From: a phage
DNA: 64,000 nt
Sequence record: PV467749.1
Direction: 5' to 3' (one strand)
The position numbers and the translations under genes were made by a program. Below the pieces are notes generated by a model, which saw nothing but the letters and a program-made list of their open reading frames with translations, had not been told where the DNA came from and made no database searches. Below are positions 34,984 to 35,487 of this stretch, piece after piece (position 1 is the first letter of the stretch; the number at the start of each line of letters is the position of its first letter).

Positions 34984-35487
34984 TTATTTTACTTTGACAG
35001 TACAGGTTACCTTCTTACCCTGGAATTCAACTTTCTGGACATACGTTACGTTACCCAAACGACGAACGAATGATTCCATTGCATCAACGTTGTTTTGGAT
35101 AACAGTTGCGTTTGTGCCGCGACCTGTAGTTTTCATTACAATGTGTACTTGCTTACCTTCTTCTAAGAACTTACCTGCACTTTTCGCTTTAATAAGCAAA
35201 TCATGCTCTTGAGTTCCGAAGTTGAATTGAATCTCTTTAGTACTAACAGTGTTTTGACGCTGTTTCTTCAAAGAGGCTTTTTCAGCCTGTTTCAATTCGT
35301 ATTTGAATTTGTTCAGATCAGTGATTTTAACAGCAGGTTCATCACCTGCTCCAATAACCACCAAATCCAGACCTTCAGTTTCTGCTAAAGCAAGTGCTTT
35401 AGAGATTGCCATGACTTCACTTTTACCTTCCGTAACTAGACGGACAGTTTTTGCGGTGATTTCGTTATTGGCAATAATAGATTTCAT
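34984..35487 (-). CDS. infC: translation initiation factor IF-3 homologue (phage-encoded)
   Basis: By-eye alignment to E. coli IF3 (recalled): [33 protein letters not shown]... / [40 protein letters not shown] versus [35 protein letters not shown] / [40 protein letters not shown]. Confidence 0.7.

Follow-up and report, generated by a model that had tools for sequence, protein, structure and literature searches.

What does a phage gain from an initiation factor of its own: more of the activity that its host already has, or a different way of choosing where translation starts? Few means are open to a phage for acting directly on start-site selection or on how many free 30S subunits are available, and an initiation factor encoded by the virus could be one of them. 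The question is raised here by a gene on the minus strand (34984..35487) of a phage sequence of 64,000 nucleotides (PV467749.1), the whole of which is called the window below. This gene, which is both real and functional, encodes initiation factor IF3. As for its role, it is fairly probable, in our judgment, that the phage protein is a ribosome-binding IF3 that stands outside host autoregulation and inspects the start codon more weakly than, or differently from, the host factor.

Identification and fold of the phage IF3

The infC-like gene starts with ATG and encodes 167 amino acids plus a stop codon, which is inside the coordinates given above. It was identified from the ORF list, Pfam, TIGR00168, and PHROG 9787. 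An earlier reading of this DNA, made from the sequence alone, had taken the ORF at 34984-35487 for an IF3 homologue of 167 aa. Its coordinates are exact and three curated IF3 models are matched; the strand, which it left unstated, is minus. Each of the motifs that it quoted (VRLV, GLDLV, KEI.F, FLEEG, and GR) is found in the translation.

The search against the IF3_N and IF3_C profiles that the same reading had suggested gives significant matches to both, above the curated cut-offs (gathering scores for Pfam, and the NCBI curated cut-off for TIGR00168). IF3_N (PF05198) is matched by residues 7-71 over profile positions 2-69 of 70 (E=4.4e-16, 59.3 bits versus a cut-off of 26.9). IF3_C (PF00707) is matched by residues 82-165 over profile positions 2-84 of 86 (E=3.5e-12, 46.5 bits versus 34.8). 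With the NCBIfam infC equivalog TIGR00168, the full-length protein scores 100.3 bits (E=1e-28), the cut-off being 60. The protein also matches PHROG 9787 ("translation initiation factor") with E=3.7e-66. When PDB is searched by sequence, the best matches are IF3 chains of ribosome complexes (E. coli 8jsg_A, E=1.7e-16).

The AlphaFold2 model of the protein, built on an alignment of 21 sequences, has a mean pLDDT of 84.7 and consists of two alpha/beta domains with a long helix (residues 58-78) between them. The order of predicted secondary structure elements, E-E-H-E-E / H58-78 / E-H-E-H-E-E, is that of the dumbbell IF3 fold. The model is compatible with the two-domain fold that the first reading had expected, and it superposes on ribosome-bound IF3: Foldseek gives a TM of 0.73 (E=4e-13) with the 30S-bound IF3 5lmn_X. 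TM is 0.82 (rmsd 2.0) with the isolated C-domain 1tig; for the N-domain, it is 0.76 with the isolated domain 1tif and 0.81 with 6o6d.

Three parts can be delimited on the minus strand. The N-terminal domain (aa 7-71; 35275..35469), supported by Pfam IF3_N and the fold matches, holds Y63, the equivalent of E. coli Y75, at its junction with the linker. The inter-domain linker (aa 72-81; 35245..35274), located from the AlphaFold2 model and the alignment, is basic and lysine-rich, is placed within the predicted helix 58-78, and is two residues longer than that of E. coli. The C-terminal, 30S-binding domain (aa 82-165; 34993..35244), supported by Pfam IF3_C and 1tig, holds the invariant D96 and K100, which correspond to E. 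coli D106 and K110. Since the profile and the structure comparisons both agree with IF3, the interpretation as IF3 holds. Compared with bacterial IF3 (E. coli InfC; TIGR00168; 5lmn and 8jsg), the phage protein has the same two domains, basic helical linker, fold, pI, and charge layout.

The IF3 gene in Rak2-like jumbo phages

The T4 background implied by the sequence-only reading is wrong: the window belongs to a Rak2-like jumbo coliphage (Asteriusvirus type) of ~350-380 kb. Over 4 kb around the IF3 gene, the identity with jumbo coliphages CMSTMSU, TH47, Turkey3, Ecwhy_1, and fEgEco12 is 98-99%. With PBECO4, 121Q, SP27, and Sharanji, phages whose genomes measure about 350-385 kb, the identity of this stretch is 85%; the Sharanji record is classed in Asteriusvirus. 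The IF3s of the Rak2-like jumbo phages (121Q gp47, PBECO4, Sharanji gp294/infC, RaK2, GAP32, and CBB_318; PHROG 9787) are the same gene as the one found here. At the protein level, the identity is 98-99% with Ecwhy_1 and Turkey3, 89% with 121Q and PBECO4, 68% with RaK2, and 53-54% with GAP32 and CBB. The IF3 loci of these relatives have an identical gene order and share the ATG start and a GGAG before it, and nothing material differs.

As a discovery, the phage IF3 gene is already known and annotated. Many GenBank records label it as translation initiation factor IF-3 (e.g., 121Q gp47, SP27, and Sharanji, where it is named infC). CBB_318 was described as IF-3 with homologues in GAP32, 121Q, PBECO4, and Rak2 (PMC5259590). 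For jumbo phages of group 2.2, Iyer et al. mentioned IF3 alongside KTSC proteins and proposed a joint role in ribosome rescue (PMC7824862). Al-Shayeb et al. listed IF1 and IF3 among the translation genes of huge phages, which they proposed to intercept host translation and redirect it to phage mRNAs (PMC7162821). Other translation parts found in huge phages (IF1, IF3, S1, S21, L7/L12, tRNAs, and aaRS) are likewise cases of host initiation machinery carried by a large phage. According to the Sharanji paper, what IF3 does in phages "cannot be definitively stated" (PMC11895373). The literature searched offers annotations and speculation only, and no experiment on a phage IF3 was found in it.

Because the gene is on record, its presence here adds nothing new. 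What is added by the present analysis is a prediction on function: a whole clade of IF3s is without the residue that contacts the start codon, keeps the residues that bind the ribosome, and has dropped the AUU start. The loss of the codon-facing motif throughout the clade seems to be unreported in the literature consulted.

Origin and selection

The phage IF3 is 33% identical to E. coli IF3, and blastn of the gene against 5,426 complete E. coli genomes gives no match. A HMMER scan of 1.84 billion representative proteins finds 5,125 relatives, of which only five have E<=1e-30; full-length identity exceeds 50% in no case. The top matches are unnamed proteins from clusters in which metagenomic contigs of ~90-620 kb occur. 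Among 185,579 species genomes, the best loci belong to Flavobacteriales and Bacilli (31-46% identity); since the peptide pattern used for these genomes favours Bacteroidota and Bacilli, the ranking is biased by the pattern and is no unbiased phylogenetic sample.

When 286 unique sequences are placed in a neighbor-joining tree, all 35 unique IF3s of Rak2-like phages group together in a single clade that contains no bacterial sequence, and E. coli IF3 is no nearer to this clade than other bacterial sequences are. The gene order RNaseH-Dda-orf196-orf64-IF3-ClpSlike-KTSC-orf523 is kept in 15 IMG/VR loci, down to an IF3 identity of 51%. dN/dS of IF3 is 0.084 versus 121Q and 0.12-0.30 versus more distant members. 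The tree, the synteny, and dN/dS together indicate that IF3 is an old, vertically inherited, and selected core gene of the Rak2-like jumbo phages, without recent capture.

Host genes are known to enter phage genomes and homology of the protein to infC is clear, so that a recent capture of host infC, or a decaying passenger without a role in infection, has to be considered. Such an origin is hardly tenable. Whether the gene was recently captured from the host had been asked in the earlier reading, and the answer is no: recent capture is ruled out by the 33% identity to E. coli IF3, the lack of a blastn match in the 5,426 E. coli genomes, the lack of any cellular relative above 50% among the 1.84 billion proteins (the best bacterial loci being those of Flavobacteriales and Bacilli at 31-46%), and the monophyly of the phage clade. 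The fixed synteny and the dN/dS of 0.08 also speak against capture and against a passenger.

Conserved residues and predicted ribosome binding

Alignment columns were compared among 39 clade members, 81 bacterial IF3s, 129 nearest representatives, and 65 other viral IF3s; note that the bacterial set is skewed to Bacteroidota and Bacilli by the search pattern. In E. coli numbering, the positions that are invariant or nearly so in all of these groups are N16, I19, A42, A46, D52, P63, D69, K72, Y75, K82, K94, E95, D106, K110, F117, G121, G132, R133, and G167. The equivalents of E. coli N16, D52, K72, K94, D106, K110, F117, G132, and R133 are invariant in the phage proteins. K100, the equivalent of K110, does not vary within the clade, and at Y63, the equivalent of Y75, 87% of the clade has Y and 13% has F. 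In E. coli IF3, K110L abolishes 30S binding, and Y75N (infC362) is a fidelity mutant in which start-codon selection is impaired (PMC7145577). Unlike E. coli IF3, the phage protein has no N-terminal tail, and every clade member carries Leu where E. coli has Y70.

The distribution of charge is also kept. The phage IF3 has a pI of 9.54 and a net charge of +8, the same as E. coli IF3, and in both proteins the N-domain is acidic and the linker and C-domain are basic. The net charge of the linker is +5 in the phage IF3 versus +6 in E. coli. While E. coli IF3 has 15 arginines, the phage IF3 has 5, with lysine largely used instead. Ribosome binding by the phage IF3 is plausible from its sequence, since the equivalents of K110, D106, G132, R133, N16, and D52 are invariant, that of Y75 is Y or F, and the charge layout is that of IF3.

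Loss of the codon-facing motif

The conserved bacterial motif 129-RFRGR-133 is absent from the phage IF3. Column statistics and a motif census place a degenerate motif, 119-KTTGR-123 (35119..35133, minus strand), in its stead. Only the equivalents of G132 and R133 are kept in it, and Thr takes the place of both F130 and R131. None of the 39 clade members has K or R at the R131 position, compared with 80 of the 81 bacterial IF3s and 59 of the 65 other viral IF3s. Instead, V, S, T, E, A, I, or Q is found at this position in the clade, and T, M, A, V, I, Q, or L at the position of F130. The equivalent of E134 is mostly G or A, and that of R99 is uncharged. The phage protein thus lacks the equivalents of R131, F130, R99, and E134 of E. 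coli IF3, and an insertion of three amino acids (aa 128-130), specific to the clade, follows the motif. Against altered inspection, the R99 position varies among bacteria too and is Gly in most Bacteroidota sampled. IF3s from other viral contigs, which lie outside the Rak2-like clade and have mostly kept K or R at the R131 position, are probably independent acquisitions.

In 30S pre-initiation complexes, Thermus Arg91, Arg123, Gly124, and Arg125 contact or are near A+1, U+2, and the +4 nucleotide, R131 being the residue that contacts U+2 and the +4 nucleotide (PMC5037330). By alignment, with the offset checked, the four Thermus residues are E. coli R99, R131, G132, and R133. In E. coli, R131P promotes initiation at non-AUG codons, on leaderless mRNA, and with initiator tRNA without the three G-C pairs, and start-codon discrimination is relaxed when RFRGR is swapped for the mitochondrial KKGK (PMC11775629). 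Mycoplasma IF3 naturally has P, F, or Y at the R131 position (PMC11775629). Because the motif is highly conserved but not defining, and mitochondrial and Mycoplasma IF3s are also without RFRGR, the membership of the phage protein in the IF3 family stands, as a divergent subgroup.

The phage IF3 resembles mammalian mitochondrial IF3 (IF3mt, KKGK), Mycoplasma IF3, and E. coli infC R131P in that the position contacting the start codon is not conserved, which in those cases is tied to relaxed discrimination toward non-AUG codons, leaderless mRNAs, or atypical initiator tRNAs (PMC11775629). The terminal extensions of IF3mt are absent from the phage IF3, and the likeness is one of functional analogy, not of shared ancestry. 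The loss of RFRGR and of R131 lends some support, at the level of sequence, to altered start-codon discrimination by the phage IF3.

While IF3mt and Mycoplasma systems use non-AUG or leaderless starts or unusual initiator tRNAs, this region of the phage genome has almost only AUG starts with a Shine-Dalgarno sequence. Annotated starts are ATG for 102 of 104 genes in Turkey3 and for 64 of 64 in Sharanji, and ~90% have a Shine-Dalgarno-like core; these counts rest on annotation pipelines that call ATG, GTG, and TTG only. A set of phage genes that need non-AUG starts is not supported by these numbers. Since AUG with Shine-Dalgarno is nearly universal in the region, no need for relaxed start choice or for leaderless initiation is visible.

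Such uniform start sites would suit a fully discriminating IF3. The phage protein could then be a plain supplement, which does the same work as host IF3, including full proofreading of start codon and initiator tRNA, and merely raises its dosage, the changes in the motif being neutral. This is how the CBB authors read it (PMC5259590), and all family profiles are above threshold and the equivalents of K110, Y75, D106, G132, and R133 are kept. We regard this explanation as rather unlikely, however. A position that is basic in 80/81 bacterial IF3s is basic in 0/39 members of the clade, the two central positions of the motif vary freely in the clade, and discrimination by E. coli IF3 is measurably relaxed when the motif is mutated or swapped (PMC11775629). 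It could also be that the loss of the motif reflects mere relaxed constraint.

Gene neighbourhood and expression signals

The IF3 gene is part of a long block of genes for replication and nucleotide metabolism on the minus strand. In the order of transcription, the local run begins with the RNase H gene, followed by a Dda-like SF1 helicase (36425..37768), a gene of 196 aa, a gene of 64 aa, and IF3. Downstream of IF3 are a ClpS-like gene (34425..34970), a KTSC-domain gene (33805..34350), genes of 523 aa and 264 aa, and gyrase B-like (29386..31350) and gyrase A-like (27923..29335) ORFs of topoisomerase II, all on the minus strand. A position between dda and topoisomerase II, as first proposed, is loosely right: the Dda-like gene is two small genes upstream and the gyrase-like ORFs are four genes downstream.

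The "normal ATG start with an SD" of the same proposal is borne out. The start codon is ATG in the window as well as in each of the 15 Rak2-like loci, and a Shine-Dalgarno core read from the sequence, GGAG (35498..35501, minus strand), lies 10 nt before it and is at the same place in 13 of 13 relatives examined. Further upstream is a predicted promoter of sigma-70 type, TTGACA-17 nt-TATAAT (35532..35560, minus strand), which matches the consensus at 12 of 12 positions. The end of its -10 element is 44 nt from the ATG, and its -35 element shares sequence with the stop codon of the 64-aa gene that precedes IF3. The window has five perfect sites of this type, every one of them on the minus (coding) strand, versus 0.2 expected by chance. 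An element of the form TTGACx-16/17-TAxxAT is found at the same distance from IF3 in most relatives, despite the diverged intergenic sequence. As support for the preferred explanation, the promoter should be taken as a consensus match only.

The ClpS-like gene starts 13 nt past the IF3 stop. It matches PHROG 15940, and relatives annotate its product as a ClpS-like protease adaptor; with Pfam ClpS the product scores below threshold (E=0.026, 14.8 bits versus 23). The KTSC-domain gene (Pfam KTSC, E=6.2e-14) is the third in the conserved run of IF3, ClpS-like, and KTSC genes. With a gap of only 13 nt between IF3 and the ClpS-like gene, and no minus-strand terminator detected ahead of the ClpS-like and KTSC genes, the three genes are likely to be co-transcribed. 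From this arrangement, IF3 and the ClpS-like gene are probably co-transcribed.

The conserved run also bears on the idea that the IF3 fold has been put to another use along with the ClpS-like and KTSC proteins, e.g., in freeing assembly or hibernation factors from the 30S subunit or in binding phage RNA. Host IF3 is known to displace RbfA from the 30S subunit as well (PMC7145577), a role in ribosome rescue has been proposed for KTSC and IF3 (PMC7824862), and Sharanji also encodes an S30EA/HPF-like protein (PMC11895373). However, there is no pointer to a partner or to another target, the ClpS match is below threshold, and the overall pattern of conservation is that of standard IF3, which makes such repurposing very improbable.

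Cellular infC has a non-canonical AUU start, which acts as the sensor for IF3 autoregulation. In many of the bacterial infC loci examined, ATG, GTG, and TTG are all missing from the expected start, where only ATA, ATT, or ATC is present. While E. coli infC starts with AUU and belongs to an infC-rpmI-rplT operon, the phage IF3 starts with ATG, has a putative promoter of its own, and is in no such operon, its neighbours being phage genes. Because a canonical AUG stands in the place of the AUU-type start, the phage IF3 is expected to escape the IF3 feedback.

Proposed action on the host ribosome

We infer 30S binding, the timing of expression, and an effect on fidelity for the phage IF3 as follows. 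The gene would be transcribed early by host RNA polymerase, perhaps jointly with the ClpS-like and KTSC genes, and its AUG start would free it from the autoregulation that AUU imposes on cellular infC. The protein would bind the host 30S subunit at the normal IF3 site. The extra IF3 activity, being beyond host control, would keep subunits apart and help ribosome recycling, and the formation of 30S initiation complexes would be sped up on phage mRNAs, nearly all of which in this region have AUG and a Shine-Dalgarno sequence. Inspection of the start codon and anticodon would be weaker than, or unlike, that of host IF3, as is expected from the change of RFRGR to KxxGR, the uncharged equivalents of R131 and R99, and the insertion of three amino acids. 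If this is true, the clade would offer a natural IF3 variant with ribosome binding uncoupled from proofreading, of use in learning how fidelity is enforced by IF3, and would show a phage tuning translation initiation in its host.

The same residues could be read further. Because the codon-contacting arginines (the R131 and R99 equivalents) are missing, the phage IF3 might leave the P site more easily and proofread less. It may then be, as we suggest only tentatively, a factor of low stringency that binds the 30S subunit, quits the P site sooner, out-competes host IF3, and alters both the speed and the selectivity of initiation. This would be a case of viral reprogramming of bacterial start-site selection. 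As to what the phage would gain, proofreading may be dispensable at uniformly strong phage start sites, or a quicker release of the C-domain from the P site may be favoured instead. Displacement of IF3C is reported to be rate-limiting for initiation (PMC8266586).

A protein that keeps the ribosome-binding determinants and has no codon-contacting arginines could also act as a dominant-negative mimic. It would fill the IF3 site on host 30S subunits without productive host initiation, leading to host shut-off or redirected translation. The predicted early expression, free of host autoregulation, would agree with this, as would the proposal that the translation genes of huge phages intercept host translation (PMC7162821, PMC11895373). 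Phage and host mRNAs are alike in their AUG and Shine-Dalgarno architecture, however, and offer no visible basis for selectivity; in addition, both domains and the linker are under strong purifying selection, beyond what a simple blocker needs. A mimic of this kind is improbable, and a ribosome-binding IF3 with weaker or different inspection of the start codon is the reading that we prefer.

tRNAs

In mycoplasmas, an IF3 without R131 goes with unusual initiation, and a phage initiator tRNA paired to a relaxed IF3 in a similar way was considered for the Rak2-like phages; it is unsupported. No tRNAs or known RNA families were found in the window. Sharanji encodes seven tRNAs, of which a single one has a CAU anticodon. 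It is 90 nt in length, its variable arm is long, and it has a G1-C72 pair; since its anticodon stem is without the three G-C pairs, it is a non-initiator tRNA.

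Genes downstream of the phage IF3 gene

Phage IF3 (window 34984-35487, minus strand) opens a conserved gene run, IF3 / ClpS-like / KTSC. The ClpS-like gene (34425-34970, minus strand; PHROG 15940) lies 13 nt downstream of IF3, and the two genes are found side by side in all 15 of the Rak2-like loci examined (IMG/VR loci with a fixed gene order around IF3). This gene is annotated as 'ClpS protease adaptor' in relatives; the Pfam ClpS match of its product (E=0.026, 14.8 bits) is below the cut-off of 23. The third gene (33805-34350, minus strand) encodes a KTSC-domain protein (Pfam KTSC, E=6.2e-14). 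A joint role of KTSC and IF3 in ribosome rescue or phage translation has been proposed by Iyer et al. (PMC7824862). A gene encoding a 523-aa protein (32244-33815, minus strand) belongs to the same run as IF3. A match of this protein to MA3, a eukaryotic domain of the eIF4G type, scores 16.7 bits (E=0.007), below the cut-off of 23.2, and is probably due to chance.

Promoters in the window

The window has five perfect sigma-70 consensus promoters (TTGACA-N16-18-TATAAT), while 0.2 are expected by chance. All five exist on the coding (minus) strand, at 256-285, 2117-2145, 12291-12319, 17334-17362, and 35532-35560. Dispersed over the replication-gene block, they are probably early promoters used by the host RNA polymerase.

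Composition and sequence records of phage IF3

Phage IF3 and E. coli IF3 share a pI of 9.54 and a net charge of +8. While E. coli IF3 has 15 Arg residues, phage IF3 has only five and carries Lys instead, a replacement that may derive from the phage's genomic base composition.

In the close relative Escherichia phage CMSTMSU (MH494197.1), the tblastn match of IF3 (239770-240198) is 100% identical but includes only residues 13-155. A query of 4,001 nt covers 3,978 nt in this near-identical record. The partial match together with the shorter span suggests that the deposited sequence contains indel errors or frameshifts.

Start codons of bacterial infC and a CAU tRNA in Sharanji

Among the bacterial infC loci (L004-L083; for the most part from Flavobacteriales, Chitinophagales, and Bacilli), many frames lack ATG, GTG, and TTG altogether near the expected start. 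Many have only ATA, ATT, or ATC at this position, ~13-15 codons ahead of the conserved domain, a pattern consistent with widespread non-canonical start codons in infC.

Escherichia phage Sharanji has an annotated 'tRNA-Met(CAT)' of 90 nt (OR545507.1, 95373-95462, minus strand; 9374-9463 in its locus, L165). This tRNA is class-II-shaped and carries a CAU anticodon; its variable arm is long, G1 pairs with C72, A73 is present, and CCA is encoded in the gene. It is not an initiator tRNA. Note that it adjoins a tRNA-Ser whose anticodon, ACT, is unusual. A tRNA adenosine deaminase is also among the genes of Sharanji.
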